A stretch of 64,000 bases of DNA from an uncultured Pseudomonadota bacterium (GCA_902793435.1 CADBDF010000003.1:26167-90166); one strand, 5' to 3'. Positions 9,581 to 28,926 are shown, numbered from the stretch's first letter. Translations and numbers: made by a program. Notes: generated by a model not told the origin, from the letters alone.

Positions 9581-9694
9581 AACAAATACTTTTCAATTTT
9601 TTATATTATCAAACAAATAGATAAAGTCAATATTCGGCAAAAATACTTGACACAAGGAATTTTTTTATATAAAATTTGTCGGCAATAGAGTTTT

Positions 9695-9769
9695 GGCCCC
9701 ATCGTCTAATGGTTAGGACACCGCCCTTTCAAGGCGAGAATCCCGGTTCGAATCCGAGTGGGGCTGCCA
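9695..9769 (+). tRNA. tRNA-Glu (anticodon UUC)
   Basis: GGCCCCATCGTCTAATGGTTAGGACACCGCCCTTTCAAGGCGAGAATCCCGGTTCGAATCCGAGTGGGGCTGCCA is close to E. coli tRNA-Glu. Anticodon loop is CTTTCAA and CCA is encoded. I count a G1-U72 wobble and two stem mismatches (27-43, 50-64). Confidence 0.85.
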
Positions 9770-9779
9770 AAATAAACAA

Positions 9780-9803
9780 ATCGGGTTTTATGCCCGATTT
9801 TTC
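9780..9803 (+). terminator. rho-independent terminator after tRNA-Glu
   Basis: atcggg / cccgat stem followed by a T-run. Confidence 0.7.
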
Positions 9804-9877
9804 TTTGTTTTCCAATACTTTCAGCAGTTCGTAAGTCGGGCATCAAAAAACATACCCGTTTCACACATTTACGAACT
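9803..9877 (+). repeat. A repeat copy 1 (conserved leader plus nested hairpin)
   Basis: ctttgttttccaatactttca, then outer stem agttcgtaagt (9826-9836) / atttacgaact (9867-9877). Inner stem is cggg/cccg, with a 3' bulge tttcacac. Confidence 0.8.
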
Positions 9878-9987
9878 TTTAAAAAGAAAAGGTTAGAAAT
9901 CTAACCTTTTTTTGTATATATTGTTTTTTGCTTGAATTTTTCTGGTTTTTATTTCAATATTTTGTTTGTTGAAAAAGGGGATATTTA

Positions 9988-10698
9988 ATGAAAATCATAG
10001 ATAATATCAATGTGTTTGGTGATTCTTTGTCAAAAGGAATTGTTTTAGATGATGACTCTAAAAAATATAAAATATCAGATAACAATGCCGTAGATGTGTT
10101 TAGTCGTAATATGCCTGTTTCTGTAAAAAATTATTCCAGATTTGGTTGTACAACAGATAAAGCTGTAAAAATAGCAGATGGTGTATTTAATAACGGATTA
10201 GAAAACGATTTGTTTTTGGTTGAATTTGGTGGAAACGATTGCGATTTTAATTGGGATATTGTTGCAGAAAATCCGACCAACAAAGATATTAAACCAAGTG
10301 TTTCATTAGAACAGTTTAAGGTAAATACTCAAACTATCATTGATAAATTACGCAAATTAGGAAAACGTATTGCTATAATGTCTTTGCCACCAATTGATGC
10401 AAATAAATATTTTAAATGGATTTCCAAGGGTGATAAGCAACGTGCCGCAAATATTTTGCAATTCTTGGGGGATGTGAATTTTATATACAGACATCAAGAA
10501 TTGTATGCAGTTGCATTTAAACAAATTGCCATAGATAACAATATTCCTGTGGTGCCTGTTCGTGAAACCTTATTAGGCATTCATAAATTAAGTGATTACA
10601 TTTGTGAAGATGGAATACATCTAAATGAACAAGGGCAAGCGGTTGTAGAGAGTGTTTTTGAAAATACATATTTACAATATCACCCTGAAACAAAGTAA
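9988..10698 (+). CDS. SGNH/GDSL-family hydrolase
   Basis: 236 aa with block I (NVFGDSLSKG), block III (EFGGNDC) and block V (CEDGIHLN). Confidence 0.7.
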   Translation: MKIIDNINVFGDSLSKGIVLDDDSKKYKISDNNAVDVFSRNMPVSVKNYSRFGCTTDKAVKIADGVFNNGLENDLFLVEFGGNDCDFNWDIVAENPTNKDIKPSVSLEQFKVNTQTIIDKLRKLGKRIAIMSLPPIDANKYFKWISKGDKQRAANILQFLGDVNFIYRHQELYAVAFKQIAIDNNIPVVPVRETLLGIHKLSDYICEDGIHLNEQGQAVVESVFENTYLQYHPETK

Positions 10699-10704
10699 TG
10701 TGTA

Positions 10705-10787
10705 TCCAAAAACACCTTAATTTCTTTCCCGAATGACAACAAATCACGCATAAACTCAGTTCGTGAATTGCACAGATGGCCCTGCCA
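10705..10787 (+). repeat. B repeat copy 1 (ends in a tRNA-3'-end mimic)
   Basis: tccaaaaacaccttaatttctttcccgaatgacaacaaatcacgcataaactcagttcgtgaattgcacagatggccctgcca. Its end resembles T-loop + acceptor + CCA (compare ggttcgaatccgagtggggctgcca). Confidence 0.75.
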
Positions 10788-10797
10788 AAAAAACAAA

Positions 10798-10819
10798 ATC
10801 ACCTTTTGGTGATTTTTTT
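10798..10819 (+). terminator. hairpin plus T-run following B1
   Basis: atcacc tttt ggtgat then seven T. Same position relative to TGCCA as the tRNA-Glu terminator, but with a different, still complementary, stem sequence. Confidence 0.6.
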
Positions 10820-11030
10820 ATTTTGCTAAAACCTTTCACGAAGGATTTGAACCGGGATGGGTCAGAGCACCTGGCGCGGATACGCGCCACACGAAAACGA
10901 AGTTTTTGTGAAATATGGGTGCGCATGACCAATACGAGAATACACAATTAGAAAAATCATAAAAACGGAGTTTGTGTCCCCACGAGTTTTTATAGATTTT
11001 TATTATTGCGTATCGAAGAGGCGAGTGAAA

Positions 11031-11055
11031 AATCCGAGTGGGGCTGCCAAAATAA
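11031..11055 (+). repeat. displaced copy of the tRNA-Glu 3' end (att-type direct repeat)
   Basis: aatccgagtggggctgccaaaataa is identical to 9751-9775. It is followed by a hairpin (11060-11081) and A repeat copy 2, as after the intact tRNA. Confidence 0.85.
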
Positions 11056-11082
11056 CAAAACCGCATTTTTGCGGTTTTTTTG

Positions 11083-11156
11083 TTTGTTTTCCAATACTTT
11101 CATGAGTTCGTAAGTTAGGTGTTGAAAACAGACACCATTTCACACATTTACGAACT
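11083..11156 (+). repeat. A repeat copy 2
   Basis: Same leader and outer stem (11105-11115 / 11146-11156) as A1, but the inner stem is ggtgt/acacc instead of cggg/cccg. Confidence 0.8.
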
Positions 11157-11206
11157 TGCGTTTTTCTTAATTCATATTAAAATTTATTCTGAACAAAAGG
11201 AATGCA

Positions 11207-11503
11207 ATGATTATAACAATCTGCGGTAGCATGCGATTCAAACAAGAAATGATGAAAATCACCCAGGACATGACCCTTAACGGGCATTGTGTACTGACAC
11301 CTGTGTTTTCAATTGATGAACAAAGAGATTATACACCAGAACAAAGACAAAAACTAAAATCCGCACATTTAAAAAAGATTGATTTGTCTGATGCGATACT
11401 GGTTGTAAATGTAAATAACTATATCGGCGATTCAACAAATGCGGAAATAGAATACGCAAAACAAAAAAACAAACAGATTTTATATTATACCGATTTAATA
11501 TAG
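11207..11503 (+). CDS. small nucleoside 2-deoxyribosyltransferase-like (DUF4406-like) protein
   Basis: 98 aa. MIITICGSMRF, HLKKIDLSDAILVVN and YIGDSTNAEIEYAKQKNKQILYY resemble the stand-alone NDT-like fold family. AAAGGAA lies 5 nt upstream. Confidence 0.45.
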   Translation: MIITICGSMRFKQEMMKITQDMTLNGHCVLTPVFSIDEQRDYTPEQRQKLKSAHLKKIDLSDAILVVNVNNYIGDSTNAEIEYAKQKNKQILYYTDLI

Positions 11504-11543
11504 ACACTGGAAAAATAAATTTATTTTCTGTGTGGAACATTTC

Positions 11544-11610
11544 TGTAAAAATATTCTTATTTCTTTCCCGAACAACAACAAATCATGTATGTAATTAGTT
11601 CGTGAATTGC
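11544..11610 (+). repeat. B repeat copy 2 (lacks the TGCCA end)
   Basis: tgtaaaaatattcttatttctttcccgaacaacaacaaatcatgtatgtaattagttcgtgaattgc. Confidence 0.7.
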
Positions 11611-11716
11611 TTAAGCGGTGTTTTGATATTGCTTTTTTATGCGATTTATGATATAATATAGGCAATTTGACAGACGGCATTTTGCCGTCTTTTTTATTTA
11701 AACAAAGGAGTTATAA

Positions 11717-12322
11717 ATGGAACCTATCTATATATCCGCATTTCCAGGAATTGGTACAACCAGAATGTATGTTGGAAACGATGGAAATATTTATGAGTTT
11801 AGTGGCGGAAGTCGAGCATGGCGTAATAATAATCCCGGCAATTTGGAATATGGCAAATTTGCACGTGATAATGGAGCGATTGGAACAGACGGCAGATTTG
11901 CAATATTCCCAGATACTGCGACAGGTTTTAATGCTATGGCTGGTTTATTATCAACAAATGCTTATCAAAAACTAACAATAGAAGAAGCAATAAATAGATA
12001 TGCCCCACCAAACGAAAATAATGTTGAAGATTATTTAAAATCTATAGAACGACAGACTGGTTTTTCGCGTTCTACACCAATGAATAACCTTTCCAAAGAT
12101 AATTTATTAAAATTGGCGAAAGCAATGACAAAACATGAAGGAAATATGTCTGGAAAAAAACGTTTGGTTCCTAGAAACGAAAAATATATTTGGGTCACAG
12201 TTGGTGATGATAAAGTTCGACCAGAACATGAAATACTGGACGGAGAGATAAGAACATGGTATGATACACCACATCCAGGAGAAGAATATGGATGCAGGTG
12301 CCATGCAGAAAGCGCTGATTAG
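11717..12322 (+). CDS. hypothetical protein with a C-terminal phage MuF/SPP1-gp7-like motif
   Basis: 201 aa. The C-terminus DDKVRPEHEILDGEI...PHPGEEYGCRCHA resembles the MuF-family signature (D..R..H..LDG ... hP.CRC). The N-terminal part carries WRNNNPGNLEYG, which I cannot assign. Confidence 0.5.
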   Translation: MEPIYISAFPGIGTTRMYVGNDGNIYEFSGGSRAWRNNNPGNLEYGKFARDNGAIGTDGRFAIFPDTATGFNAMAGLLSTNAYQKLTIEEAINRYAPPNENNVEDYLKSIERQTGFSRSTPMNNLSKDNLLKLAKAMTKHEGNMSGKKRLVPRNEKYIWVTVGDDKVRPEHEILDGEIRTWYDTPHPGEEYGCRCHAESAD

Positions 12323-12800
12323 TTTTTTTGTTTTGTTATTATGTACGGCTTGTTCAAGACAAGTTGAATATACTGGTGTTTTTTCTGACGGTCTGCCAAC
12401 ACCAGATAAAACCGAATATTTTGATTTGTCAGACGAATACGGAATAAAACAAATAGATACCTTCTATATTGATGTTAATAATAACGGTATCAAAGACACA
12501 ATTAAACGTGGTCGTTTTGTGACGGGAACTGCGCACTCTTACACTTATTATGATATATATTTGGATAATGGTGAAAAACTTGCACGATTAACAACTCATG
12601 AGGGAGCAGATTGTGTTTTGCGCGCTTATAAATTCCAAATACAACCGTTCGTAATAACAAGTGCATCAAGAAATGTTGGTGCTGATTATACAGAACCCAC
12701 AAAAGCAAAAATTGAAAACCTTGAAATTATAAATAATAAAATAGAATCTGTATCATCCAAAGAACATAAACCAATTTGTGATGTCAGGTATTTATTGTAA
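12288..12800 (+). CDS. secreted protein or possible lipoprotein, hypothetical
   Basis: Start chosen at ATG 12288 (AGGAG 6 nt upstream), overlapping the previous gene by 35 nt. Signal-like N-terminus MDAGAMQKALISFFVLLLCTAC. Confidence 0.5.
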   Translation: MDAGAMQKALISFFVLLLCTACSRQVEYTGVFSDGLPTPDKTEYFDLSDEYGIKQIDTFYIDVNNNGIKDTIKRGRFVTGTAHSYTYYDIYLDNGEKLARLTTHEGADCVLRAYKFQIQPFVITSASRNVGADYTEPTKAKIENLEIINNKIESVSSKEHKPICDVRYLL

Positions 12801-12807
12801 ATAAGTA

Positions 12808-12890
12808 TTCAAAAACACCTTAACATCTTTCCCAAATAACAATAAATCGTGCATAGTATCATCTCGTGAATTGCGCAGATGGCCCTGCCA
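12808..12890 (+). repeat. B repeat copy 3 (with tRNA-3'-end mimic)
   Basis: Roughly four-fifths identical to B1 by eye, ending in the same gcagatggccctgcca. Followed by hairpin 12900-12922 (accggcc/ggtcggt). Confidence 0.75.
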
Positions 12891-12920
12891 AAAATTTAAA
12901 CCGGCCTTTTGGTCGGTTTT

Positions 12921-12996
12921 TTGTTTGTTTTTCAATACTTTCACAAGTTCGTAAGTTAGGTGTTGAAAACAGACACCTTTTTGCTGACTTTCGAAA
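12921..12996 (+). repeat. A repeat copy 3 (3' half degraded)
   Basis: Same leader, 5' outer stem (12946-12956) and ggtgt/acacc inner hairpin as A2. The 3' outer arm is replaced by ctttcgaaat. Confidence 0.7.
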
Positions 12997-12999
12997 TTT

Positions 13000-13266
13000 T
13001 CATTTCATCGTAGACTGCAAACTATCACGATATTGCCTGATTTGTTCTTTTGTTTGTAGATATTCTTTATAATATGGCAAAGCTTGCTCATATTGCTTTA
13101 CTTTATTATCAATAACAGATTGTTTGGCTTTTTCTTTATCTTCTTTTATACCCCTTGGTATTAAAACACCAAATATCATATAAGCACTGAGACCAGATAA
13201 AACAACAATCGCACCAATACCAAAACGATTATATTTTATGTTTCGTTTTTCTTCTTCTGGTGTCAT
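13000..13266 (-). CDS. small single-pass membrane protein, hypothetical
   Basis: 88 aa with one hydrophobic helix (FGIGAIVVLSGLSAYMIFGVLI) and a charged C-terminal tail. Confidence 0.4.
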   Translation of the reverse strand: MTPEEEKRNIKYNRFGIGAIVVLSGLSAYMIFGVLIPRGIKEDKEKAKQSVIDNKVKQYEQALPYYKEYLQTKEQIRQYRDSLQSTMK

Positions 13267-13315
13267 ACGCTATCCTTTTTTGGCATTGTAGCAAGACTTA
13301 TCTGCAATTGCAAGT

Positions 13316-13398
13316 TGTAAAAATATTGTAATATCTTTCCCAAATCGCAACAAATCACGCATAAACTCTACTTGTGAATTGCACGAGTCGCCTTGGCA
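13316..13398 (+). repeat. B repeat copy 4 (degenerate TGGCA end)
   Basis: tgtaaaaatattgtaatatctttcccaaatcgcaacaaatcacgcataaactctacttgtgaattgcacgagtcgccttggca. Overlaps the last ~10 codons of the deaminase gene on the other strand. Confidence 0.7.
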
Positions 13399-13952
13399 AA
13401 ATAATTTCTTTTTGGTTTATAAATTATGTGGCCTTGGGTCACATAATCTTGCAAAACCTGTTCGCCTGCATCCGTTTCGATTTGACCATATACGGTTATA
13501 CCGCGTTTTTTAAATTCATTAAACCAATCTGGTTTAAATCCTTCATCAAATCCGGTAATTTTGGTGACACGTTTAGAAGGCACACCATAATAAACCTCTT
13601 TGATTCCAGACCATATAATCGCCCCCAAACACATCATACATGGTTCCGATGTCACATATATACTTAAATCATACTTTGACAAATCATAAGTCCTCAGTTT
13701 CTTTTCTGCCAATTTTATCGCGTTCATTTCTGCATGATTGTGACTGCAAGATTTATTGACAACACTGTTGGCAGCCTTGGCAATCAAATTACCTTTTGAA
13801 TCATAAATTGCCGCCAAAAATGGACCATGCCCCGTATTAATATATTTTTTTAATTCGTGTTGTAATTCCAATATAATTTTACTGGCATTATCCAATTTAG
13901 ATTTATCGATTTTTTTATTAGCAATCACAGATAATGTTTTACTTTTTTGCAT
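13368..13952 (-). CDS. CDA-superfamily nucleoside/nucleotide deaminase (guanine-deaminase or TadA-like)
   Basis: 194 aa with zinc motifs HAEMNAI and SEPCMMCLGAIIWSGI. Confidence 0.75.
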   Translation of the reverse strand: MQKSKTLSVIANKKIDKSKLDNASKIILELQHELKKYINTGHGPFLAAIYDSKGNLIAKAANSVVNKSCSHNHAEMNAIKLAEKKLRTYDLSKYDLSIYVTSEPCMMCLGAIIWSGIKEVYYGVPSKRVTKITGFDEGFKPDWFNEFKKRGITVYGQIETDAGEQVLQDYVTQGHIIYKPKRNYFAKATRAIHK

Positions 13953-15811: not shown

Positions 15812-15901
15812 GGATGGTTGGCAGAGCGGTCGAATGCGACGGTCTTGAAAACCGCTGACGGGGTAACTCGTCCGGGGGTTCGAATCCCTCACCATCCGCC
15901 A
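15812..15901 (+). tRNA. tRNA-Ser (anticodon UGA)
   Basis: 90 nt. Acceptor GGATGGT/ACCATCC, anticodon loop CTTGAAA, long variable arm (TGACGGGGTAACTCGTCC), T-loop TTCGAAT, encoded CCA. Closely parallels E. coli serT. Confidence 0.95.
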
Positions 15902-16183
15902 GTATTCTGGCATGTATGCCGATACAGATGAAACGCCCGCGGTTCTGCGGGATTTTTCATACATTGACTTCGGTATGGGCGAAAATTGCCCTTTTTTACG
16001 CCATAATATCCTGCTTCCTATACACCCCCCATTTTCCGATAGTCAATACCTTGAAAAATAGCCAGAAAACCCTATATAAACACCGTAATAAAATTATAAA
16101 ACACAGGAGAAAAAATCGCTTTTTTTCATTGAAAACACAAGGTTTTTGTATTACATTTTTCATGAAAATTTATGAGGACAATT

Positions 16184-16357
16184 ATGAAAGAAACAGTAAA
16201 AAATCAAATAAACATCAATAAGGTGGGTAAAAACTCTGTTGTCGCAAATGGTGATACTGCAGTTGCTATTGGTAAAACAGAAAAAAACATAAATAAAAAA
16301 TCTTTTTGGGCTTCGTTAATAGAGGCAGTATCACGAGTATTTAAAATATTTTGCTAA
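16184..16357 (+). CDS. small protein sharing an N-terminal motif with the downstream giant protein
   Basis: 57 aa from ATG 16184 (GAGG 8 nt upstream). KNSVVANGDTAVAIGK parallels QDSVVANGELAVAAGR of the next ORF. Stop lies 7 nt before that ORF. Confidence 0.55.
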   Translation: MKETVKNQININKVGKNSVVANGDTAVAIGKTEKNINKKSFWASLIEAVSRVFKIFC

Positions 16358-16364
16358 ATAAAAG

Positions 16365-19300
16365 GTGTGTAATTTGGCACTAGATAAAATCGAAAATCAC
16401 GCAGATGTTCTTCTATCTACCAAAAAGATACAAGATAGTGTAGTGGCCAATGGTGAACTGGCTGTTGCAGCAGGTCGCGATGTCAATATTTACGTACAAA
16501 TGCCGGCAAATCCGACCCCTGCAATCATGGAAGATTCGTCTTCAAGGGATTGTAAATTTAACAAAATTTTGCATAGGAATATAGATGTCGTAAAAGAATT
16601 GTTAAATACTGGTCAACCGGACAAAGCTTTGGATGAAATATTAAAAATTGAAACAATATATGAGGGCGAATTAAAGGAACCTGATGCAAAAAGACGTTTG
16701 TTACTTAATAAAGGGACTGCATTAATTCTATTAAATCGTCCATTAGAGGGTGCAAATTCTTATTTGGAGGGCTATTACTGTTCGCCGGACAATGAACTTT
16801 CTAACGCATTGCGTATAAAAGCATATTTTATCAAAAAAGATATTGCAGGACTAAAAAAAGCAATTTCTGAAGTTCCCGAAATTCATCGTACAAGCAGGGT
16901 AATCGCTGGACGTATACTTGAAGCAATTCAACTTGACATAAAAAACTTCCCCACAATGCCAGCAGAAATAAACGAAGTGTGTTTTGACGATGTTGCAAAC
17001 TGTCTGATAGCAAGCAAATTTTATTCTGTACGTGGAGATGAGACCAATGCCGCGAAATTTTTTAATCAAGCGAAAGATATAAATCCTGACGATTGGCAGA
17101 TTTTGGCTTGGGAAGGTACGCGATATATGGGAGATGAGCCACAAAAACAGCCCATAGGTGCGATTAGATCAGCCAAAGATTCACTAGAAAAAGCATGGAA
17201 TTTAATTAAAAATCAGACCAATGTACCGTTTGCCGAATTGTTATATATCCCCATAAACTTAGCTAGTGCGTACAGATTACTGAACATGCAAAAAGAGGAA
17301 CGCGACCTTATAGAAAATCTATATTCACGTTTCCCTGAAGATCCAGATGTATTGTTAAAAAAAATCCTTAACGCCGATGATTGTGCGGAAGCGGCACAAT
17401 TATCAGACAAACTTGATGTCAATAAAGGCTTTTATTATGCAGGATTGGCAGCGATATCATACATCAATAATAAGCAATATAATAAAGCATTATCTGTGTT
17501 ACAAAAAGCTCCGCACGACGCGAATTACGACCAATTAGAAATCGATTTAAGAACCTGCATATGTTACAAAGAGTTAAATAATATTACAGCGGTTGACAAT
17601 ATTATTAAAAAACAAAAATCGGTCGCTGCAAAGAAATTACTTATGCATATAAAAACTGGCAACGTGCGAGATTTAATTCAAGCACGCCGATTTCTGAAAC
17701 CCACAGATTGTGTATATATCAAAACAGAAATTGCGACAAGATTATATAAGGCACAATTATATACAGAAGCATCACCTGTGTACAAAGAAATAATCAAGAT
17801 TGTTGGTTTACACGATGTCATTTTATCACATTATTTAGATTGTTTACATAGGACATCTGATGTTTCGGGCATGTATAAAGTATTATCATCTGTTCCCAAT
17901 GAATACATTAATAATACTATATTGCAATATTGGGCTTTTTATCATGAGACTATGGGAGACAATGAAAAAGCCACATTATTTTTCAAAAAAGTATTCGACC
18001 AACAACCAGAAAATTCGAGAGTTGCAGTAAATCTGGCTATTATGTATCACCGGAACGATAATGAAGAAGCTTTGTTAAAACTATTGGATAAATTACCATC
18101 AAATTTAAATAAAATGTTTGGTGATGTCAAAGCTAAATGGCAGTTGCTTCACCTTATGTACGAACACAAGTTTGCAATGGAAACTCTCCCACAAAAAGCG
18201 TATGAATTAATAACTGAAAATCTTTATGATGAAGAATCTTGGAAAAACTATTTTACGTGGTTTATGACATGTTTAGCTGATTTCAAAATCGTAAACAATA
18301 AAACAGGTTTTATTTTGCACGACGAAGCAACCAATACCAACGAAATTTATATTATTGAAGATGACCCAAATATAAAAACCAACAAATTCTTTAATGTATT
18401 GCGAAGTTCCGATGTGTTCACAAAAAAATTAATGATGGCGGAAGAAAATTCCAATATCCAACTCGGACAAAATGGAATTGAATGCAAAGTTATTAATATT
18501 AACAATAAATACGTAACTGTAGGATGTATCATTCGCGACCAAATTTTTATACAATTTCCTGACTGTGATATAATTAGAATTGATGGGAAAACACCAGAAG
18601 AAGCCGTAGAAAAATTAAAACGACTGTTTAATTTTCAAAATCAGACACAGGATTTAATTAAAAATTATTATAAAGAAAAATATTTGCCAATATCCACGTT
18701 AGCAAATATGTTGGGAAAAGATGTAATAAGTCTAATGGAATTCCTTGCTACGGAAAAACTGATTGTATCGGAAGGGAGCGTAGTAGAGCAAAAGGATACC
18801 CAAAAACTGGTTAATAAACAAGCCGGATACATTATAGATGCGATTACTATTTTTAATGCATTTTGGTTCCATGTGGAGACCATGTTGGCAAATGTTGTTA
18901 AAGATAATCTTTACGTATCACAAAAAACCATAGATATTTTCAAATCGCTGAAAGAAGAGGAAATGCGATTCTTAAAAATGCGCGGTGGACGGCTTTTCAA
19001 AACTAATTCTGAAGACCAAAAATTGACATTTGCATCGCATGAAGACTTGAAAGACTATCAAAAAAATAAAATTAAAATGTTGGATGATATTCTTACATGG
19101 TTAGGTGAGAACGCAAAGATTATAATTCCATCTGGTGCATCAAAATTGTCTGACAACAAAGAACAGTTGCTTTCATTTTTTCAAGAAAAAGATTTAGAAA
19201 CAGCTTCTGTCATACGGTTAGCTAAGGATAAAAACTTAAACTTGTTGTCTGACGATTATATGCTGCGGGCAATGGCGAAAAAACAATTTGAAATAGATGG

Positions 19301-19721
19301 ACTATGGCTTCAAGGATTATTCATGTACAGCCCTTTTGCCAATAGTAATGAATATGTGGAATACGTTGTAAATTCTATAAAAAATAACCATAGCTTTATA
19401 AGTTTTAACTCTGCCAATCTATTTAAAATTTTTATCAAAGGGGGACCGGACATAAAAACTTTAGTAAACCAAATGAGAGCATGTTCATCAGAAAGCGCTA
19501 TAATAGTCGCAACAGAATTTTATAGTAAATTGATAACATTTGACAAAAACACACCACAAATTGCGTTTATGTTGATAGATGCTGTCTTGAATAGTGGCAC
19601 GCATACAGAATATAATATCAGATTAAGAGGCATGTTGGCAATTGCAAAGCACGATGCAATCTTTGACCGAGCACTACATGATTGGTGTACGGGACACTGT
19701 TTACCATATCCACAGGAATAA
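16365..19721 (+). CDS. 1118-aa TPR-repeat protein with a GreA/B C-terminal-like domain and a PIN-like domain
   Basis: TPR-like repeats over about residues 70-620 (e.g. ATLFFKKVFDQQPENSRVAVNLAIMY). Residues ~650-715 (EIYIIEDDPN...SSDVFTKKLMMAEENSNIQLGQNGIECKVININ) fit the GreA/B C-domain pattern. Residues ~815-1010 (GYIIDAITIFN...ETASVIRLAKDKNLNLLSDDYMLRAMA) look PIN-like. Start codon (GTG 16365 or TTG 16374) is uncertain. Confidence 0.7.
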   Translation: MCNLALDKIENHADVLLSTKKIQDSVVANGELAVAAGRDVNIYVQMPANPTPAIMEDSSSRDCKFNKILHRNIDVVKELLNTGQPDKALDEILKIETIYEGELKEPDAKRRLLLNKGTALILLNRPLEGANSYLEGYYCSPDNELSNALRIKAYFIKKDIAGLKKAISEVPEIHRTSRVIAGRILEAIQLDIKNFPTMPAEINEVCFDDVANCLIASKFYSVRGDETNAAKFFNQAKDINPDDWQILAWEGTRYMGDEPQKQPIGAIRSAKDSLEKAWNLIKNQTNVPFAELLYIPINLASAYRLLNMQKEERDLIENLYSRFPEDPDVLLKKILNADDCAEAAQLSDKLDVNKGFYYAGLAAISYINNKQYNKALSVLQKAPHDANYDQLEIDLRTCICYKELNNITAVDNIIKKQKSVAAKKLLMHIKTGNVRDLIQARRFLKPTDCVYIKTEIATRLYKAQLYTEASPVYKEIIKIVGLHDVILSHYLDCLHRTSDVSGMYKVLSSVPNEYINNTILQYWAFYHETMGDNEKATLFFKKVFDQQPENSRVAVNLAIMYHRNDNEEALLKLLDKLPSNLNKMFGDVKAKWQLLHLMYEHKFAMETLPQKAYELITENLYDEESWKNYFTWFMTCLADFKIVNNKTGFILHDEATNTNEIYIIEDDPNIKTNKFFNVLRSSDVFTKKLMMAEENSNIQLGQNGIECKVININNKYVTVGCIIRDQIFIQFPDCDIIRIDGKTPEEAVEKLKRLFNFQNQTQDLIKNYYKEKYLPISTLANMLGKDVISLMEFLATEKLIVSEGSVVEQKDTQKLVNKQAGYIIDAITIFNAFWFHVETMLANVVKDNLYVSQKTIDIFKSLKEEEMRFLKMRGGRLFKTNSEDQKLTFASHEDLKDYQKNKIKMLDDILTWLGENAKIIIPSGASKLSDNKEQLLSFFQEKDLETASVIRLAKDKNLNLLSDDYMLRAMAKKQFEIDGLWLQGLFMYSPFANSNEYVEYVVNSIKNNHSFISFNSANLFKIFIKGGPDIKTLVNQMRACSSESAIIVATEFYSKLITFDKNTPQIAFMLIDAVLNSGTHTEYNIRLRGMLAIAKHDAIFDRALHDWCTGHCLPYPQE

Positions 19722-19733
19722 TTGCTTTTTGAT

Positions 19734-21362
19734 TTAACATCCATAAAACGCAGATTCTTGTTTATCAAAATCTGCGTATTTTTGTGCGATACCGAACAAG
19801 GTTTGCAGGTTCACGTGTGCAGGTACTTCGCCTTCCAGTATGTCGCCAATTATTTTAGGTGACAGGTATGCCAGGTTCATGTATTTATATACCGTTCTAT
19901 CGGCACGATGTTCTGTGCGTTTAATCTGGTCAACCGGAACACCGGCTTCGTATTGCTTTTTATATTTCCATCCGAATGCCAGTGCCTTGGTCAATATCTG
20001 TGCGTTTTCTGTTTTTGTATGTATTGATACTTCGCCACCATCACATCGGTGGTTTATACAGGTTCGCGTATTCACATAGAACTGTGTTTCCACAACCGCA
20101 TATTTACCATCGTTGGTTATATACATATGCATAGGTTCTACTTTTGAATTTATGGTGTCTGTTTTGAATTGTTCCAGATAACCCATGTCGTCAATCTTGA
20201 TGAATATTGCCAGGGCATTTTTGTTAAACACTATTTTATCAACCATTTGTTGCATCAATTCGTCTGAATAACAAGTTTGTTTGAATTCTAATCGCTTGGC
20301 TTCCGGTATAGCAATCATATCAGAATCCAAGAATCTTTTTATCGTATCTGTAACAATCTGTTCCACATCGCCAGCCGGTAATGATATTTTATCGGCTTTG
20401 TAATAGCGGTATTTTTTCAATCTGTTATCTTTGTTGCTTTGTTGGTTCTTGAATATCTGGCCATCCGGTGTTTGTATCTTATTATGCAACAATGATTTAC
20501 CGATGGTGTAACCCGCATTTTTGTGATTGTTGCCATCGTGCAGTTTCTGTTGCACATCGTTAAATAATTTTTCATCAAGTATCGCTTCATGCAATCCGTT
20601 AAATGTCTCTTTGCTTCGCTTGTTTGCAATCTTGCCAATATATACCGGATTTTTCAGGATTCTGTCCAATGAACTGGTGGCTATGATTGTACCACCTTTT
20701 TGTTGGCCTTTGTTGGTTGTCCATGTCTTTCCGCGTATTCCCATATCAATCAGTCGCAAGCGGCAATCTGACATACCAGTACTTATCATATATGTATTAA
20801 ATATCCGGCGGACTGTTTCGGCTTCGGTTTCATTTACCACCAACTTCCCATCGATAACATCGTACCCAAGCGGTGGTATTCCACCAATCCACATCCCCTT
20901 TGCTTTTGTGGCACGGATTTTATCACGCACACGTTCCCCAGACACTTCGCGTTCAAATTCTGCGAACGATAGTAGCATGTTCAGGGTTAGTTTGCCCATG
21001 GCAGTGCTAGTATCGAATGATTGCGTTATGCTGACCAGATTGCAGTTATGTGGTTCAAAATCTTCCTTCATCATGCGTTTAAAGTCATATATGCTACGCG
21101 ACAATCTGTCGATTTTATAAACCAGAACACATTGTATTCGACCAGCTTTGATATCGGCCAGCATTTCCTGTAAACCTGGACGGGCCATCGTTCCGCCAGA
21201 AATCGCCGCATCACTGTAAGTCTTGTAATATTGCCAACCATTAAACGATTGGGAAGCAATATACGCTTTACAAGACTCTTCTTGGTTTTGCAGAGAATTA
21301 AACTCCTGTTCCAATCCATGTTCAGTTGATTTACGCGTATAAATAGCACATCTAATCGTCAT
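19734..21362 (-). CDS. large serine recombinase
   Basis: 542 aa. N-terminal resolvase catalytic domain (CAIYTRKSTEHGLEQEFNSLQNQ, VLVYKIDRLSRS), a recombinase domain (GGIPPLGYD) and a long C-terminal extension. Confidence 0.9.
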   Translation of the reverse strand: MTIRCAIYTRKSTEHGLEQEFNSLQNQEESCKAYIASQSFNGWQYYKTYSDAAISGGTMARPGLQEMLADIKAGRIQCVLVYKIDRLSRSIYDFKRMMKEDFEPHNCNLVSITQSFDTSTAMGKLTLNMLLSFAEFEREVSGERVRDKIRATKAKGMWIGGIPPLGYDVIDGKLVVNETEAETVRRIFNTYMISTGMSDCRLRLIDMGIRGKTWTTNKGQQKGGTIIATSSLDRILKNPVYIGKIANKRSKETFNGLHEAILDEKLFNDVQQKLHDGNNHKNAGYTIGKSLLHNKIQTPDGQIFKNQQSNKDNRLKKYRYYKADKISLPAGDVEQIVTDTIKRFLDSDMIAIPEAKRLEFKQTCYSDELMQQMVDKIVFNKNALAIFIKIDDMGYLEQFKTDTINSKVEPMHMYITNDGKYAVVETQFYVNTRTCINHRCDGGEVSIHTKTENAQILTKALAFGWKYKKQYEAGVPVDQIKRTEHRADRTVYKYMNLAYLSPKIIGDILEGEVPAHVNLQTLFGIAQKYADFDKQESAFYGC

Positions 21363-21792
21363 GTTTTTTCCTTTTGTTTATACCAAAGAAGAAATTACCA
21401 GACATTTTCATGCCTGCGATTTTAGTTGCAACTGCCGACAATGTTGAATATTTGTCACCGTTATATGAAAAACTGCCATCATCATTGACTAAGATGGTGT
21501 ATTTTATACCCTTGAAATATCGGGTTAAAATTGTGCCTGGGACAAAGTTATATTTATTTGGACATGCATGGTCTAAACATTGTTCTGGATTATCCTTGTA
21601 TTTTCGAATTTTTACCAAATATTTATGTTCAATTCGTAGGTTTAAGCGATCACATTGAATATAATACCAAAGCGACCGCAGTTGCCTTTTAAATGGATAT
21701 TGTGAGTATTTTGCCCATAATCGAACTCGTTCATCAAAAGACAATGCTTTCAACTCATCCATCGTCTTTGGCATGTTATCTTTATATGACAT
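21352..21792 (-). CDS. DUF2924-family protein (usual upstream partner of large serine recombinases)
   Basis: 146 aa. GTILTRYFKGIKYTILVNDDGSFSYNGDKYSTLSAVATKIAGMKMSGNFFFG matches the DUF2924 C-terminal pattern. Overlaps the recombinase gene by 11 nt. Confidence 0.7.
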   Translation of the reverse strand: MSYKDNMPKTMDELKALSFDERVRLWAKYSQYPFKRQLRSLWYYIQCDRLNLRIEHKYLVKIRKYKDNPEQCLDHACPNKYNFVPGTILTRYFKGIKYTILVNDDGSFSYNGDKYSTLSAVATKIAGMKMSGNFFFGINKRKKHDD

Positions 21793-21941
21793 ATCGGCTC
21801 CTTTATAACGTCACGCAATTACCGCTCTAAAGTTGCCGAAAGTCAAGTTAATAAGCCCCTTGTTTTTTATTTTACAAAAATATTTATGTATGATACTATA
21901 CAAGAAAGCGATAAAAATATTAATATAAAGGCTTTGACATT

Positions 21942-22814
21942 ATGGATTATGAAAATATTTTCAAGGATTTTTTGGATTTAATTTATCACAATGACATTTT
22001 GCCAAATGAAATTGTTTGTGTTTTAGAAAAATATAGCAAAAACAGAGATTTTCGGTTAATTTGTGATTTATTGTATTATAAAGAGAAGTATTGTAAAACT
22101 GCTGGCGATCCAAGGACACAACAATTTTATACGGAATTGACTATGCATGCTCGCGCTTTACAGGACATCAATATTTGGCGAGACGCAATGTCGTTAAATA
22201 ATTTAAGCTATTTGAAAGCCGCTCTTAATAATGACGCTCATAATGATACTCATAGGTCGGATCCTGCAATTATTAAACCGATGATGCAACAATTGATAAG
22301 GGCAGCCAACTTAAAACCTGATGGATATCTCATTAATAATATCGATAAAAAATATACGCAAAACACTACAAATCTAAACTCAGATAAAATACTTACACTA
22401 GATAATTTAAAAATTGGTGATGAAGTAGATCATCATTTTTTACGTGATCATTTTAAAATCAATATTCAACGAGGTATGCACTTTAAACAAAAGATAATTT
22501 TAATATCTAAATTTTCTGCTTATGCGGATGAAGAAAGAGACGGCATATTACATTATTTGGGACATAATATTGTAAACGATCATGGAGGTAAATTTAATCA
22601 AACACGAACCGGAGAGAATGAGAGATTTTGTGATGCGATTGATAATTTTAAAAAGGGCGGCCAGGTTTCGTATTTTAAAATTTTTCAAAAAAGAAACAAA
22701 TGGATGTACAAAGGAGAATACGCTCTGATAGATTATAATTATACAGGTTCTAAAAATCCAAATGATATAAATTCTGATAGAAAAGTATATGAATTCTTAT
22801 TACGAAAAAAATAG
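21942..22814 (+). CDS. hypothetical protein; C-terminal half possibly an SRA/PUA-like modified-base reader
   Basis: 290 aa. GILHYLGHNIVNDHGGKFNQTRTGENERFCDAIDNFKKGGQVSYFKIFQKRNKWMYKGEYALIDY loosely follows the Y.G.GG...Q.l..gN.al...g.pv.vf.....y.Y.G.Y pattern of SRA-type readers. Weak call. Confidence 0.3.
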   Translation: MDYENIFKDFLDLIYHNDILPNEIVCVLEKYSKNRDFRLICDLLYYKEKYCKTAGDPRTQQFYTELTMHARALQDINIWRDAMSLNNLSYLKAALNNDAHNDTHRSDPAIIKPMMQQLIRAANLKPDGYLINNIDKKYTQNTTNLNSDKILTLDNLKIGDEVDHHFLRDHFKINIQRGMHFKQKIILISKFSAYADEERDGILHYLGHNIVNDHGGKFNQTRTGENERFCDAIDNFKKGGQVSYFKIFQKRNKWMYKGEYALIDYNYTGSKNPNDINSDRKVYEFLLRKK

Positions 22815-22823
22815 GCAATTTGA

Positions 22824-24107
22824 ATGAAGTTGCAAGAAAAATTAAATAATATTTCAAAAACATCAAAATTATCTTTATTGAAAGACGGCCGGTCGGTTGA
22901 TTTGGATGAGTTTTGGACCACATTTATAGAACCTTTTCTTCCGCCCAAAAAAGCAGTTGAGGGTTGGCATAAAATTTTGAAGAAATATATAAACGAAAAA
23001 AATGCTATTTTTTCGATACGGAAGTTTGGTAGTTATCGTGATAACAAAACAAAAGATCGCAAAACGTTGAGGCGCGGGTTCCTTAACCTAACAAATCTTG
23101 GTATTAACGCATTTTTTATTGATAATTTTTTTACATCGTATTTCTTTTCAATGGCTTATGATGGTTATGTGCCTGATTATAATGATTTCAAAGAAATGAT
23201 GCTCTCTAGAAAATTTCCGTGTGGCTATATTGTTACCAAAACAGAAACTGCACTCGCCGCATTTCATAAAGGAAAAGATCCACGTATTCAATATAAAGGT
23301 TATAAAATAGCACATATTCATGACGCTGGTCGTGATTTTAATATATCAAATATCAAGACAGTTGGTGATTTTTGTAAATTGTTTTTCCCATTAGGAGAAT
23401 ATGATGATTGGAAAGCCATAAAAAAAGATAAAAATGGACCTTATCACTATAGAAATTTATCGATAAAAAAAGACGACCAAAAACTTGTAAAACAGTTTCT
23501 GGTTGCGCATTTTTTACGAACGGTTCATCCCATAAATTATTTCTTGGTTCCTAAACAATTTTGTATTTCCTTTGTTAATGATAAGGGTGAAACCAAATAC
23601 GAAATTGGCGAATACGAACCCCTTATTAAATATGTAAGACAAAAAATCAAACAACGATACGGTGCAATTTATAATCAATATCTTGCATTAATTAAACGTA
23701 TCGATGACGAACAAACAGAGCAAGAAAACATTATTATAAATGCGGTTTATGGTTTAAATGGTTTTAGAAAAAACAAATCTAAAAAAACAACAAAAAAAAT
23801 TAAAACATTGAAAAAATCTAGCGGTTCATCAGGCATAGGGAAAATTGTACGAGAAACACTAATTCCTGGTCTGAACAAAATTCCGTCGGCAGAGATCAAA
23901 AAACTGCAAACTAAACAGTATTCCAAGAATACTTTTGATATAAATTATCCTCTTTTATCTAAAAATAGATTTGATAGCAATGGTCGTCCACGTTATTACG
24001 CTACACCAATACGAATTAATGGTGCTGATTGGTATGTTTGTCAGGAATGGTATGCCAGATGTGAACCCAAATTAAGGGTATGGTTAGCATTACATAACAT
24101 AGGTTAA
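22824..24107 (+). CDS. hypothetical protein; possible His-Me finger (HNH-like) nuclease
   Basis: 427 aa, starting 10 nt after the previous gene. KIAHIHDAGRDFNISNIKTV and LVAHFLRTVHPINYFLVP resemble H-N-H cores lacking Cys ligands. Has a Lys-rich linker and a C-terminal RPRYYATPIRINGADWYVCQEWY module. Weak call. Confidence 0.3.
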   Translation: MKLQEKLNNISKTSKLSLLKDGRSVDLDEFWTTFIEPFLPPKKAVEGWHKILKKYINEKNAIFSIRKFGSYRDNKTKDRKTLRRGFLNLTNLGINAFFIDNFFTSYFFSMAYDGYVPDYNDFKEMMLSRKFPCGYIVTKTETALAAFHKGKDPRIQYKGYKIAHIHDAGRDFNISNIKTVGDFCKLFFPLGEYDDWKAIKKDKNGPYHYRNLSIKKDDQKLVKQFLVAHFLRTVHPINYFLVPKQFCISFVNDKGETKYEIGEYEPLIKYVRQKIKQRYGAIYNQYLALIKRIDDEQTEQENIIINAVYGLNGFRKNKSKKTTKKIKTLKKSSGSSGIGKIVRETLIPGLNKIPSAEIKKLQTKQYSKNTFDINYPLLSKNRFDSNGRPRYYATPIRINGADWYVCQEWYARCEPKLRVWLALHNIG

Positions 24108-24121
24108 CTAATATAATATTA

Positions 24122-24694
24122 TCAGTTGTATTCGCTTGCTAATTTGGTGAAAAAGCATTCGTCGTGGTATATGCCGTCGGGCGTCAATAAATATTGGCGG
24201 TTTATTCCATCAAGGTGATAGCCTGATTTAATTATAGAATTATATGAACGGATGTTGTCTTTGATACATTGGCGGCATATTCTGTTCGCCCCCAGTTGTT
24301 CAAAGGCGATTTTTTCTATTGTTCTGTGGATTTCTTGATTAAACCCGTTTCCCCAGTATTTTCGCGCCAACCAAACAGATGAACATTCAAGTGTTTTATT
24401 ATCCGGACAATAATATATTCTTTGATAGCCAATTAGTTCATTATTAAAAAACACAAACCAATCTATCCCCCTGTTTTGACAACGATTATGATAATATTGC
24501 ATTACATGCAATGTGTCTTCTTGTGATGTTGGTAAAATACTTTCCAGTCTTGAAGAATAAATAAAATCATCTGGATTTTCATTTTTTAATACGTTCCACA
24601 CTAATAGTGCATTTTCTTCATTTGGTTCAAGAATACGCATTTCCAAACGCTCTGTTTTTATATTATGACCAAATAACTCAAAAAACTTTTCCAT
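24122..24694 (-). CDS. GNAT-family N-acetyltransferase (RimJ/RimL-like)
   Basis: 190 aa. WGNGFNQEIHRTIEKIAFEQLGANRICRQCIKDNIRSYNSIIKSGY fits the acetyl-CoA-binding core of the Acetyltransf_3 type. Confidence 0.7.
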   Translation of the reverse strand: MEKFFELFGHNIKTERLEMRILEPNEENALLVWNVLKNENPDDFIYSSRLESILPTSQEDTLHVMQYYHNRCQNRGIDWFVFFNNELIGYQRIYYCPDNKTLECSSVWLARKYWGNGFNQEIHRTIEKIAFEQLGANRICRQCIKDNIRSYNSIIKSGYHLDGINRQYLLTPDGIYHDECFFTKLASEYN

Positions 24695-24705
24695 TTGTGT
24701 TTCCT

Positions 24706-25047
24706 CTATTTTTCAGGAATATCTCTTAATGTATATTCTGGTATATTATTGCCACATTTTTCTTTTAAAATAGCACGAAAATCTGTTGCAAATCTGTCTG
24801 GAATATCTCTATTTACGTTTTCATCATCTGGCATTTCATCAGAAAAAATGTAATCCACTACGCATTTACAAGTTTTTTTGTTGTCTGCCAATTTTATGTC
24901 TTTGAATTCTTGTGCCGCATGTTTTACACAATCTTGGTATTCTTGTTTAGCTATATCATCAATCATTTTATTCCAGGCGTTTTTAGTATCGTTACTGTTA
25001 TCACAAGCACATATAAACAAAGATAATATTATAAATATTTTTTTCAT
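24706..25047 (-). CDS. small secreted protein or possible lipoprotein
   Basis: 113 aa with N-terminus MKKIFIILSLFICACDN. Lies 11 nt upstream of the GNAT gene. Confidence 0.5.
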   Translation of the reverse strand: MKKIFIILSLFICACDNSNDTKNAWNKMIDDIAKQEYQDCVKHAAQEFKDIKLADNKKTCKCVVDYIFSDEMPDDENVNRDIPDRFATDFRAILKEKCGNNIPEYTLRDIPEK

Positions 25048-25082
25048 AACACCCCCTTTTTATTCGGCAATATACCATAAAT

Positions 25083-26552: not shown

Positions 26553-26563
26553 AATGATTCCGT

Positions 26564-27250
26564 TTATTTTATCTCCAGTTTAATACCTGTTATTCCTTTT
26601 TCACGCCAATTTCCTAAATACCCGGTGTGCAAATTACCGCTTAAACTGGAAGTTGGTTTAAAATTGTTAACTTGCCATACATGTTGGGTTGCTGATTTAT
26701 TCGTATAAAACAAAGTAACAAAAACCGTGCATATGGAGGTGTCGCGCAGATGTTTTTCAAATTCTTTACCAGAACATTCGCGACCGTGTAAAAAGTATTT
26801 TTTGTCTAGAGCTGTTGATTCATGAACATTTTTTATACTGGCCGTTTTTGTTGTGTGTGTTCGTTTTTTTGCATTTTTGATGCTTTCTGCCTTGTATACA
26901 AAAAAACTTTCATCTATTTTGCCATCATCGTATTTTCTGTGGCATTCTTCACATAAAAAATGAAAATTTGCAAGATCCTTTGAAAAATTTACAAAAGATT
27001 CTTCGAATCTATCTAAATCGACATGACAAATATCTCCTTCTTTTGAATATGTTGATTCTTCAAAAAAGTTTCTTACTAAATCCTTTCTTTCAAAGCCATG
27101 TTTGTGTGCGGATTGAATTTCTTTTTCTTTTGTACCACAACATGCACAAATACCAGATTTATATTTTTGTGTTAAATCTCGTGTTTTATTACGTGCATAT
27201 CCATCAAAAAATTTTTTAAACGTTTTATAATCACCTACGAACATATTCAT
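26564..27250 (-). CDS. HNH-motif endonuclease-like protein with an unknown C-terminal domain
   Basis: 228 aa with ICACCGTKEKEIQSAHKHG and FHFLCEECHRKYD (CxxC...H...CxxCH). Confidence 0.55.
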   Translation of the reverse strand: MNMFVGDYKTFKKFFDGYARNKTRDLTQKYKSGICACCGTKEKEIQSAHKHGFERKDLVRNFFEESTYSKEGDICHVDLDRFEESFVNFSKDLANFHFLCEECHRKYDDGKIDESFFVYKAESIKNAKKRTHTTKTASIKNVHESTALDKKYFLHGRECSGKEFEKHLRDTSICTVFVTLFYTNKSATQHVWQVNNFKPTSSLSGNLHTGYLGNWREKGITGIKLEIK

Positions 27251-28915: not shown

Positions 28916-28926
28916 TTTTTCCTTGC

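Follow-up and report, generated by a model that had tools for sequence, protein, structure and literature searches.

In Neisseria, minimal mobile elements place different genes in one slot, and these are swapped by recombination in the conserved flanks with no dedicated recombinase. The composite islands of the staphylococcal cassette chromosome (SCC) at orfX in staphylococci and the pdif modules of Acinetobacter plasmids are tandem modules that lack a recombinase of their own and rely on Ccr and XerCD, respectively, encoded elsewhere. Their sites are short and well defined, their recombinases are known, and pdif modules lie between inverted XerC/D sites. In the tycheposons of Prochlorococcus, successive integrations are separated by partial copies of a transfer RNA (tRNA) gene (bioRxiv 10.1101/2020.12.28.424599). 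The locus that is compared with such systems here lies in a 64-kb stretch of one strand from an uncultured Pseudomonadota bacterium (the window; positions are counted from its first letter), where five units stand in tandem behind a tRNA-Glu gene and fill 3.7 kb (9.7-13.4 kb). On balance, we lean towards reading it as a lineage-wide tandem array of mostly single-gene cassettes at tRNA-Glu, with an origin by accretion and present-day homologous exchange. Related loci and tiles that were compared with the window carry L-numbers (in the style L001-L259).

A cassette array at the tRNA-Glu genes of Candidatus Enterousia

Two repeats, A and B, mark the units. The A repeat was found three times and the B repeat four times in the window, with no copy outside 9.7-13.4 kb and a chance expectation of 0 to 0.01. 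The motif AGTTCGTRA, whose recurrence had been pointed out in the initial annotation of this DNA, matches eight times in the window, seven of them inside the array, against 0.53 expected. To collect relatives, one genome per species was searched with the B core, which gave 102 tiles of 8 kb each. Ninety-six of these come from Candidatus Enterousia or uncultured gut Alphaproteobacteria, about 83 metagenome-assembled genomes (MAGs) obtained from cattle, sheep, goat, yak, buffalo, deer, horse, and chicken; the remaining 6 showed no B-like context beyond the search pattern. Contigs encoding the same proteins as the window come from ruminant gut metagenomes. Candidatus Enterousia, a member of the order Rs-D84, has a genome size of about 0.75-1.0 Mb (PMC12306168).

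A tRNA-Glu gene (UUC or CUC) is present in 53 tiles, and in 52 of these every B copy lies downstream of it and in the same orientation. No tRNA other than tRNA-Glu has the 5′ module of a cassette (H, described below) behind it in the related tiles, and B was never found on both strands of one tile. Each tile holds one to five B copies, the arrays continue over adjacent tiles, and an array comprises from one to at least five cassettes, with content and order varying between species. Because A and B are confined to tRNA-Glu loci and keep one polarity, they mark a conserved array behind both tRNA-Glu genes of the whole lineage. The locus is a lineage-wide cassette array, neither a chance pattern nor a dispersed repeat. 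The initial annotation had proposed a cassette platform at the 3′ end of tRNA-Glu, bounded by mimics of the tRNA end, and had named scattered repeat copies or an array invariant among relatives as outcomes that would speak against it. The proposal is supported on both counts: A and B occur only in 3.7 kb of the window and at tRNA-Glu loci in the tiles of the relatives, and relatives differ in array length, content, and order at the same tRNA. A single tile, L053 (5194-6354), has B opposite in strand to the adjacent tRNA-Glu; this may be an inverted cassette.

The plan of the array is a tRNA gene, a series of units each composed of H, genes, and a 3′ end, and then the flank, with a boundary after the tRNA and after each 3′ end. 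Four parts make up the H module (~110 nt): an A-run, a variable-stem terminator, a conserved block, and a palindromic A core of 55 nt that holds two inverted copies of the T-loop-like motif AGTTCGTAA. B (~80 nt) usually serves as the 3′ module; its last ~36 nt mimic the T-loop, acceptor, and CCA of tRNA-Glu and terminate in CTGCCA. The A core measures 55 nt in 101 of 107 distinct copies, and 37 of 51 related cassettes have 56 nt between TGCCA and the first AGTTCG (range 53-59). Between cassettes from different genomes with unrelated cargo, identity was 92.5% in CTGCCA, 92% in the A 5′ motif, 82% in the A 3′ motif, 81% in the B core (TCGTGAATTGCACAG), 78% in the block before A (block 4), and 72% in the 5′ part of B. 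It was 63% in the 7 nt before TGCCA, 62% in the inner part of A, 58% in the terminator, and 28% in the cassette interior. Both the 7-nt segment and the terminator fall into a small number of distinct alleles, such as ATGGCCC, TATGTCC, TATGCAC, and ATGGGGC, of which ATGGGGC is that of the tRNA.

Four kinds of sequence were found to the left of H, namely the tRNA itself, B, a conserved unit called the C element, and a “D” end (AGTTCGAAAGTCGTCCAGCTGGGGCTGCCA), and all of them terminate in CTGCCA. The last unit meets the distal flank with no H between them. In UUC arrays, a deaminase gene forms this flank, and in the CUC array of L066 it is the gyrA 3′ region; a flank after TGCCA like that of L066 recurs in L017, L076, L082, and L090. 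A single open reading frame (ORF) fills 79 of 101 A-to-B intervals, with a median interior of 755 bp. Cargo opposite in strand to the array is the commoner arrangement among the relatives, with 47 such single ORFs against 32 on the same strand. Cargo families include GH108 lysozyme-like proteins, GNAT acetyltransferases, nucleotidyltransferases, a pair of a MuF-motif protein and a lipoprotein, and an SGNH hydrolase; a HipBA pair was found as cargo only in the L166 scaffold. In eight loci (L022, L038, L041, L043, L063, L073, L105, and L107), a conserved insert of ~70 nt, termed X (CTATGAGTAGCAGAGCGATTTATCGCGATGCG..GCCGAGCGAAAC), stands between the TGCCA of B and the terminator. It resembles a truncated relative of a longer C-like element in L007, L049, and L092.

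In the window, the units are H1-SGNH-B1 (unit 1), terminator-C element (unit 2), H2-98-amino-acid gene-B2 (unit 3), MuF pair-B3 (unit 4), and H3-88-amino-acid gene-B4 (unit 5). The junction of ..CTGCCA, A-run, hairpin, and T-run was recovered at the four places reported in the initial annotation, with the CTGCCA ending at 9769, 10787, 11049, and 12890. The hairpin stems are likewise as first described, different in sequence and still complementary (atcggg/cccgat, atcacc/ggtgat, accgca/tgcggt, and accggcc/ggtcggt). The segment 11031-11055 is, as had been stated, an exact 25-nt copy of 9751-9775 (AATCCGAGTGGGGCTGCCAAAATAA), which comprises 19 nt of the tRNA-Glu end and 6 nt downstream. Over its final 36 nt, B resembles the final 32 nt of tRNA-Glu with a score that was reached by only 1 of 5000 shuffles, and exact identity to the tRNA-Glu end extends over only 6-11 nt. 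Sequence comparison found no similarity between the 5′ part of B and tRNA-Glu. B as a whole pseudo-tRNA was rejected, as only its 3′ third is tRNA-Glu-like. The tRNA-like ends proposed earlier for B1 and B3 were borne out in their mimicry but not in the letters given for B3, which reads ATCTCGTGAATTGCGCAG.. and not AGTTCGTGA...

The compactness of B, terminator, and A could suggest a non-autonomous element of ~190 nt, similar to miniature inverted-repeat transposable elements (MITEs) or repetitive extragenic palindromic (REP) sequences, that was inserted repeatedly between existing genes, so that these genes would not be cargo. The unit is indeed palindromic and highly conserved. However, the array opens with one half of it (tRNA followed by H) and closes with the other half (B followed by the flank), no further copy occurs in the 64-kb window, and in relatives the unit always stands behind tRNA-Glu. 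Neither terminal inverted repeats nor target duplications were seen, and the genes travel with their modules. An element of this kind is highly improbable as an explanation.

Regulatory features of the modules were also considered. The junction hairpins are terminator-like in all four cases (9778-9800, 10795-10816, 11057-11078, and 12898-12919), three of them on both strands, and the region 9.5-14.1 kb contains 14 terminator-like sites compared with 3.1 ± 2.0 in shuffles. An extended -10 box (TGATATAAT on the opposite strand) is present in 60 of 180 B copies, and in 48 of these 60 its spacing from the B core is exactly 34 nt and it faces into the cassette. The 55-nt A core has perfectly conserved inverted arms, and the idea that it folds as an attC- or riboswitch-like structure was dropped because no pair of columns showed convincing covariation (highest mutual information 0.30); duplex DNA bound by a protein accounts for this pattern better than a folded RNA does. 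Moreover, a gene with a Cro/C1-type helix-turn-helix (HTH) domain, a weak match, lies in the conserved distal flank. All of these would suit modules that serve expression and insulation, with B, terminator, and A acting as intergenic punctuation that combines a bidirectional terminator (the junction hairpins are predicted to be good ones), a module promoter, and operator-like inverted repeats bound by a proposed regulator. Local duplication would then have spread the modules, and cassette turnover would be a by-product. On the other hand, the modules keep one polarity, that of the tRNA, whichever way the cargo points, and are thus more than 5′ and 3′ untranslated regions. All of them stand behind tRNA-Glu, B ends in a copy of the 3′ end of the tRNA, and one and the same cassette recurs, modules included, at 98-100% identity in different arrays and species. 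Local duplication also leaves more than 100 unrelated, identically framed cargo genes unexplained. We therefore consider a purely regulatory role of the modules improbable.

Cassette exchange, origin, and the missing recombinase

Clustering of the cassette interiors showed that one cassette type can be found at different positions, with different neighbors, in UUC and CUC arrays. The SGNH cassette precedes the C element in the window and follows it in L030, where the C element lies directly 3′ of tRNA-Glu; the two SGNH cassettes are 98% identical, and the right end of the homology is at TGCC. Between the window and L164, the SGNH coding sequence is identical at 711 of 711 nt, whereas elsewhere the two differ clearly (nrdDG 77%, deaminase 82%, NERD gene 73%, tRNA-Glu 70 of 75 positions, flanks 72-82%). 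Even around the SGNH gene, the terminator allele, the inner part of A, and the 7-nt segment are all different. L067 and L030 share 100.0% identity over 978 nt with flanks at 69-91%, and across eight genomes the SGNH interior is 98-100% identical, with the terminator segment at 13-89% and the flanks at 66-92%. A second type, cassette N, is 99.8% identical between the long array of L031 and position 1 of the tRNA-Glu(CUC) array of L039, its ends being less similar.

In these transfers, the exchanged block starts in the region of A and the block before it and ends within B, and the 7 nt, TGCCA, A-run, and hairpin are not co-transferred. Breakpoints inside the A and B modules are the signature of homologous exchange, in which two crossovers fall within short homology arms. 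Had the cassettes been excised and integrated at a fixed site, the site halves would have moved with them, but here the halves were left behind. Current cassette movement looks like homologous exchange within conserved modules, as judged from these sequence comparisons. Site-specific mobilization in trans, as initially suggested, does not agree with the mapped recent transfers, which break inside A and B and not at the proposed site.

An alternative is that cassettes are still mobile by site-specific recombination at B..CTGCCA/H, with circles that would excise and reinsert after tRNA-Glu or after a cassette end. A single-cassette circle in which B1 is joined to H1 would read ..GATGGCCCTGCCAAAATAAACAAATCGGG. 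Candidate enzymes encoded elsewhere would be the family of tRNA-targeting large serine recombinases represented at 19.7 kb of the window, or a Xer-type enzyme. Such mobility would account for the constant polarity, for the equal numbers of H modules and 3′ ends, for the position of the junction always after CTGCCA, and for the terminus shared by the four left partners of H. The three AGTTCGTRA motifs at fixed spacing resemble protein-binding sites, the order of SGNH cassette and C element is swapped between the window and L030 with the homology ending on the right at the boundary motif, and tRNA 3′ ends are where the serine recombinase family of this lineage integrates, leaving CCA-spanning repeats behind. 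Moreover, L166 is 99.1% identical to the window over 2.2 kb, and where the window has the tRNA end it shows a HipA/HipB cassette, not the tRNA, to the left of H1, with the terminus ..GGACTGCCA / ..AGTTCGAAACTTGCTAACTGTGGACTGCCA at the boundary. This HipBA unit may be an extra cassette inserted exactly at the tRNA-proximal CTGCCA junction.

Against ongoing site-specific mobility, cassettes that are 100% identical between species have different terminator and 7-nt alleles on both sides, with the site halves left behind. No recombinase is linked to the array in any of the 96 tiles, A and B were not found in the viral contigs of IMG/VR, and neither a circular form nor an empty site was seen among the loci examined, all of which had been selected for containing B. 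None of 65 serine recombinase loci lies at tRNA-Glu or has A or B. We regard this mode of present-day movement as unlikely and homologous exchange within A and B as the better account.

The first build-up of the array is a separate question. The copies of the tRNA end, the constant polarity, and the half junction at the array start with the other half at its end lead us to infer that the array arose by serial site-specific integration right after the tRNA CCA. The CTGCCA terminus common to all four left partners of H fits this origin, and so would the HipBA unit at the junction in L166. The repeated integration at a tRNA target that was suggested at first would then be a reasonable account of the initial build-up, and current movement fits homologous exchange instead. 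Several candidates for the responsible enzyme or source were rejected. A Xer-like gene was found in one tile only (L081), and a Xer/dif site in B was dismissed because the left half of the apparent palindrome varies freely. Small serine recombinases of ~198-205 amino acids were observed in L011 (1411-2028), L019, L036 (31-627, with Resolvase and HTH_7 domains), and L158 (8882-9478). As cassette-borne integrases they were discounted, with occurrence in three tiles and, in L011, a position just past the distal array end; the L158 copy stands beside a large recombinase. A phage or satellite origin was also set aside, as the A and B patterns gave only chance 15-mer matches in IMG/VR.

Integration at tRNA 3′ ends can be followed elsewhere in the window. 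A 14.4-kb island (15812-30265) is inserted at the tRNA-Ser(UGA) gene and is bounded by an exact 20-nt repeat (AATCCCTCACCATCCGCCAG) at 15883-15902, the tRNA-Ser end, and at 30246-30265. It encodes a PIN-TPR-GreABC protein (16365-19721), a large serine recombinase with Resolvase and Recombinase domains (19734-21362), and a DUF2924 protein (21352-21792), and further genes for a GNAT protein, a Cas4-like/DUF2779 protein, and an AAA protein. The related contig L164 lacks the island. The initial annotation had found no integrase in or next to the array. That holds for the array and its immediate flanks, and the large serine recombinase lies 6.3 kb beyond. Among relatives of this recombinase (L180-L259 and L158-L160), 65 loci had enough sequence, and in 62 of them the gene points with its 3′ end towards that of a tRNA gene at a distance of 0.2-4 kb. 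The targets are tRNA-Ser (48), tRNA-Pro (7), tRNA-Tyr (2), and one each of Leu, Met, Lys, Arg, and Val. In 12 loci, the tRNA end is repeated on the far side of the recombinase gene. Tyrosine integrases are the more usual enzymes to target tRNA genes.

The tRNA-Ser repeat and the repeat of the C element both begin at AATCC in the T-loop. The island, with its end repeat and its recombinase, indicates that integration at tRNA 3′ ends operates in this lineage. The enzyme of the window itself was rejected as the array recombinase, because its own island has tRNA-Ser-end repeats and its relatives are found at Ser, Pro, Lys, Tyr, and other tRNAs but never at Glu. Insertion exactly at tRNA 3′ ends seems to be general in the lineage. 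Mini-units directly after other tRNA genes (Ser, Pro) were observed in L164 (10110-10600), L159, L158, L181, and L184. Their borders are repeats of 11-15 nt spanning the tRNA CCA end, and the repeat in L164 includes a duplicated terminator around a gene for 110 amino acids. The cargo beside the recombinase relatives is variable and defense-like, for example Cas9 and restriction-modification genes in L158.

Several observations weigh against accretion followed by homologous exchange. No recombinase gene was found in or beside the array, in the window or in the 96 related tiles, by a motif scan, which was not exhaustive for the tiles, and by tblastn; the exceptions among the tiles are the Xer-like gene and a few small resolvases outside the arrays. 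The 65 relatives of the large serine recombinase include none at tRNA-Glu, and their loci have neither A nor B. Homologous recombination alone leaves the initial framing of unrelated genes by H and B unexplained. Within the species, the array is invariant in 7-8 contigs except L166 and L005, as seen in look-ups of exact proteins. L166 is a scaffold with a 10-N gap and is possibly a chimera, joined through a terminator allele that is shared by many species. The terminator alleles were linked to neither the left nor the right cargo in the few informative pairs, so that the side of TGCCA on which the original crossover fell is not inferable. All genomes with the SGNH cassette come from cattle-rumen data sets (RUG/STEW19), and assembly cross-talk could explain part of the identity. 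Such cross-talk is unlikely as the source of the identical cassettes, since the longest exact stretches in the arms are shorter than the usual final k-mers and several of the contigs are very long. The common origin from cattle rumen also makes real transfer between co-resident species plausible. As to L005, its contig is otherwise 99.8-100% identical to the window and has a 144-bp deletion (L005 5099-5101 versus window 11095-11238) that removes the A2 core and the start of the 98-amino-acid gene, with 3 nt of overlap at the junction.

In the two-layered scheme that we favor, units would have been laid down serially right after the tRNA CCA, in tandem accretion, by a recombinase encoded outside the array, with newer units inserted beside a ..CTGCCA terminus. 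In the second layer, which can be read from the sequence patterns, cassettes pass between species and between both tRNA-Glu loci by homologous recombination within A and B. The two modules act as portable homology arms, and the junction segment (7 variable nt, TGCCA, and terminator) remains with the recipient. Genomes of less than 1 Mb thereby draw on a flexible gene pool, with hydrolases, acetyltransferases, nucleotidyltransferases, lysozyme-like proteins, and possibly toxin-antitoxin pairs. More tentatively, and with somewhat greater doubt than belief, we suggest that the array could be a dedicated exchange platform without an integrase in cis, an independently evolved analogue of integrons in which tRNA-Glu is the landing site and the end modules are selectively maintained as recombination handles. 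If so, the handles would be homology arms or sites for a trans-acting enzyme, single genes would sweep across species, and the platform would supply most of the flexible genome in these bacteria.

The origin of integron cassettes, and how genes gain standard mobile “ends”, is a long-standing open question. The array offers an independent natural case. Its two modules, which visibly descend from a tRNA attachment site, frame over 100 genes that are unrelated to one another, and the sequence retains both the footprint of accretion and that of homologous exchange still under way. The array also shows how species with genomes of 0.75-1.0 Mb (PMC12306168) keep accessory genes in common; one hydrolase cassette is nucleotide-identical in several rumen species. 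Literature on Enterousia, tandem accretion, tycheposons, and integron-like tRNA-Glu cassettes contained no description of such an array that we could find. This is a previously undescribed, lineage-wide cassette system in reduced genomes, and it makes the origin of mobile ends testable. The conserved arms and the tRNA-Glu landing site could be of use for placing genes into these uncultured gut bacteria, and polymerase chain reaction (PCR) primed in A and B could sample the cassette pool from metagenomes.

Units of the array in the window

The anchor of the array is tRNA-Glu(UUC) with an encoded CCA (9695..9769, + strand; ARAGORN and Rfam). A promoter-like site, TTGACA-17-TAAAAT (9647..9675, +), lies 5′ of it and matches the consensus at 11 of 12 positions, suggesting that it may drive the tRNA gene. 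H1 (9770..9878, +) comprises the A-run, the first junction terminator, the conserved block TTTGTTTTCCAATACTTTCA, and an A core of 55 nt at 9824-9878 (+), whose inverted ends are AGTTCGTAA and TTACGAACT. It is followed by a second, bidirectional terminator-like hairpin, GGTTAGAAATCTAACC (9884..9913, no strand assigned), which recurs 3′ of A in many related loci. The cargo of unit 1 is an SGNH/GDSL hydrolase of 236 amino acids (9988..10698, +; Pfam E=4e-15), and the unit closes with B1 (10708..10787, +), whose terminus is AGTTCGTGAATTGCACAGATGGCCCTGCCA.

Unit 2 begins with a junction A-run and bidirectional terminator (10788..10825, no strand assigned) with no A module after it. The C element (10826..11049, +) is a conserved unit without ORF that runs into the exact copy of the tRNA-Glu 3′ end described above, and it contains an inverted copy of the tRNA-Glu T-arm at 10843-10858. 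It was discarded as a tmRNA (transfer-messenger RNA) or tRNA, being called by neither ARAGORN nor Rfam. An Rfam search of the window and four related loci, at gathering and permissive thresholds, returned tRNAs only, with no match to A, B, or the C element. The C element is conserved across species in two sequence variants (window; L164 10560-10830; L013, L015, L030, and others). A mini-ORF of 8 codons, M-T/A-N-T-R/Q-I/T-H/N-N-stop (window 10927-10953), is conserved in it. The element often stands directly after tRNA-Glu, and a related copy lies 3′ of tRNA-Ser in L164.

Unit 3 starts with H2 (11050..11157, +), which contains a junction terminator (11057-11078) and an A core at 11103-11157. Its cargo of 98 amino acids (11207..11503, +) resembles nucleoside 2-deoxyribosyltransferases weakly (Pfam E=0.0018, below the curated cut-off). 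B2 (11547..11620, +) has no TGCCA at its end and is joined to the promoter region of the gene that follows, a fusion that is kept in L011, L033, L060, L078, L083, L093, and L099. The fused region (11623..11699, +) holds a promoter-like TTGATA-18-TATGAT followed by a terminator-like hairpin at 11672-11690, 5′ of the MuF-motif gene. This hairpin comes right after the promoter and before the ribosome-binding site and is kept in several species; the arrangement may be an attenuator or a 5′ stabilizer. The pair of unit 4 (11717..12800, +) consists of a Phage_Mu_F-motif protein (11717-12322; Pfam E=7e-10) and an overlapping lipoprotein-like partner of 170-179 amino acids (to 12800). It recurs as one cassette type in six related genomes (group C). 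B3 (12811..12890, +) ends in ..GAATTGCGCAGATGGCCCTGCCA.

Unit 5 consists of H3 (12891..12998, +), with a terminator at 12898-12919 and an A core at 12944-12998 that has a degenerate 3′ arm, a cargo on the opposite strand (13000..13313, -), and B4. The cargo is a predicted membrane protein of 88 amino acids (13000-13266) with its own promoter-like site, TTGCAA-17-TACAAT (13313-13285), which abuts B4. Pfam gave no match for this protein or for the lipoprotein-like partner, and their labels come from reading the sequences. The cargo list of the initial annotation holds for the SGNH and MuF proteins, is weak for the deoxyribosyltransferase-like protein, and for the secreted partner and the small membrane protein has no Pfam match behind it. 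B4 (13319..13398, +), the last B, is degenerate (..TTGGCA), has no H after it, and directly abuts the conserved flank. A gene for a cytidine/deoxycytidylate-type deaminase (13368..13952, -) forms this flank. The junction of B and deaminase is also present in related loci, and the deaminase family was found in 16 loci. In the window, the deaminase ORF enters B4 for 10 codons (13368-13398), taking its C-terminus and stop codon from the last repeat of the array.

Comparison with known systems

The resemblance to integrons, and to clusters of attC sites lacking an integrase (CALIN), lies in the reserved site, the small and mostly single-gene cassettes, the conserved boundary module, and the content that varies between relatives. 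The cargo may include a toxin-antitoxin pair (HipBA, in the L166 scaffold only). As in attC clusters, an integrase beside the array is missing: no Phage_integrase-type match was found among the annotated genes of the window, and the only Xer-like gene in the 96 tiles is that of L081. In contrast to integrons, the boundary is CTGCCA/AAA and not the attC-type G/TTRRRY, a conserved fold is unsupported for lack of covariation in the A core, and the anchor is a tRNA gene in place of attI. The cassettes are also not co-oriented and promoterless, as single ORFs run in reverse in 47 cases and forward in 32, with promoter-like sites of their own or borne by B. The mapped transfers break within the flanking modules. 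The integron-like logic that was first proposed is thus apt for the outcome, small cassettes with variable content, but does not extend to IntI, to an attC-type boundary or fold, or to co-oriented promoterless cassettes.

Closer parallels in the tRNA site are the cis-mobilizable elements (CIMEs) related to integrative and conjugative elements (ICEs) of streptococci and the tycheposons. They share with the array a site at the tRNA 3′ end, partial copies of the tRNA end between units, and newer units that displace older ones inward, and they likewise include integrase-less units and degraded relics; a flexible island of the tycheposon type in a streamlined genome is a further likeness. The array units are co-oriented at the tRNA 3′ end in 52 of 53 tiles and have direct repeats of the tRNA end between them. 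However, they measure 0.3-2 kb with one gene, compared with multi-kb elements, and an integrase-bearing unit or neighbor was found in 0 of 96 tiles. The separators here are elaborate conserved modules (80 + 110 nt) that are only partly tRNA copies, and current exchange appears to be homologous. SCC units are much larger than those of the array, and the array has no conserved dif-like site such as borders pdif modules.

The tRNA-Ser island of the window shares with the array the genome, the target at a tRNA 3′ end, and a repeat running from AATCC in the T-loop through CCA, like the 25-nt repeat of the C element. It differs in its size of 14 kb, in the absence of A and B, and in having its own recombinase, which the tRNA-Glu array lacks. 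With the minimal mobile elements of Neisseria, on the other hand, the array shares a transferred block whose breakpoints lie inside conserved flanks; the arms here are non-coding tandem modules of 80-110 nt with a mimic of the tRNA end, and not housekeeping genes.

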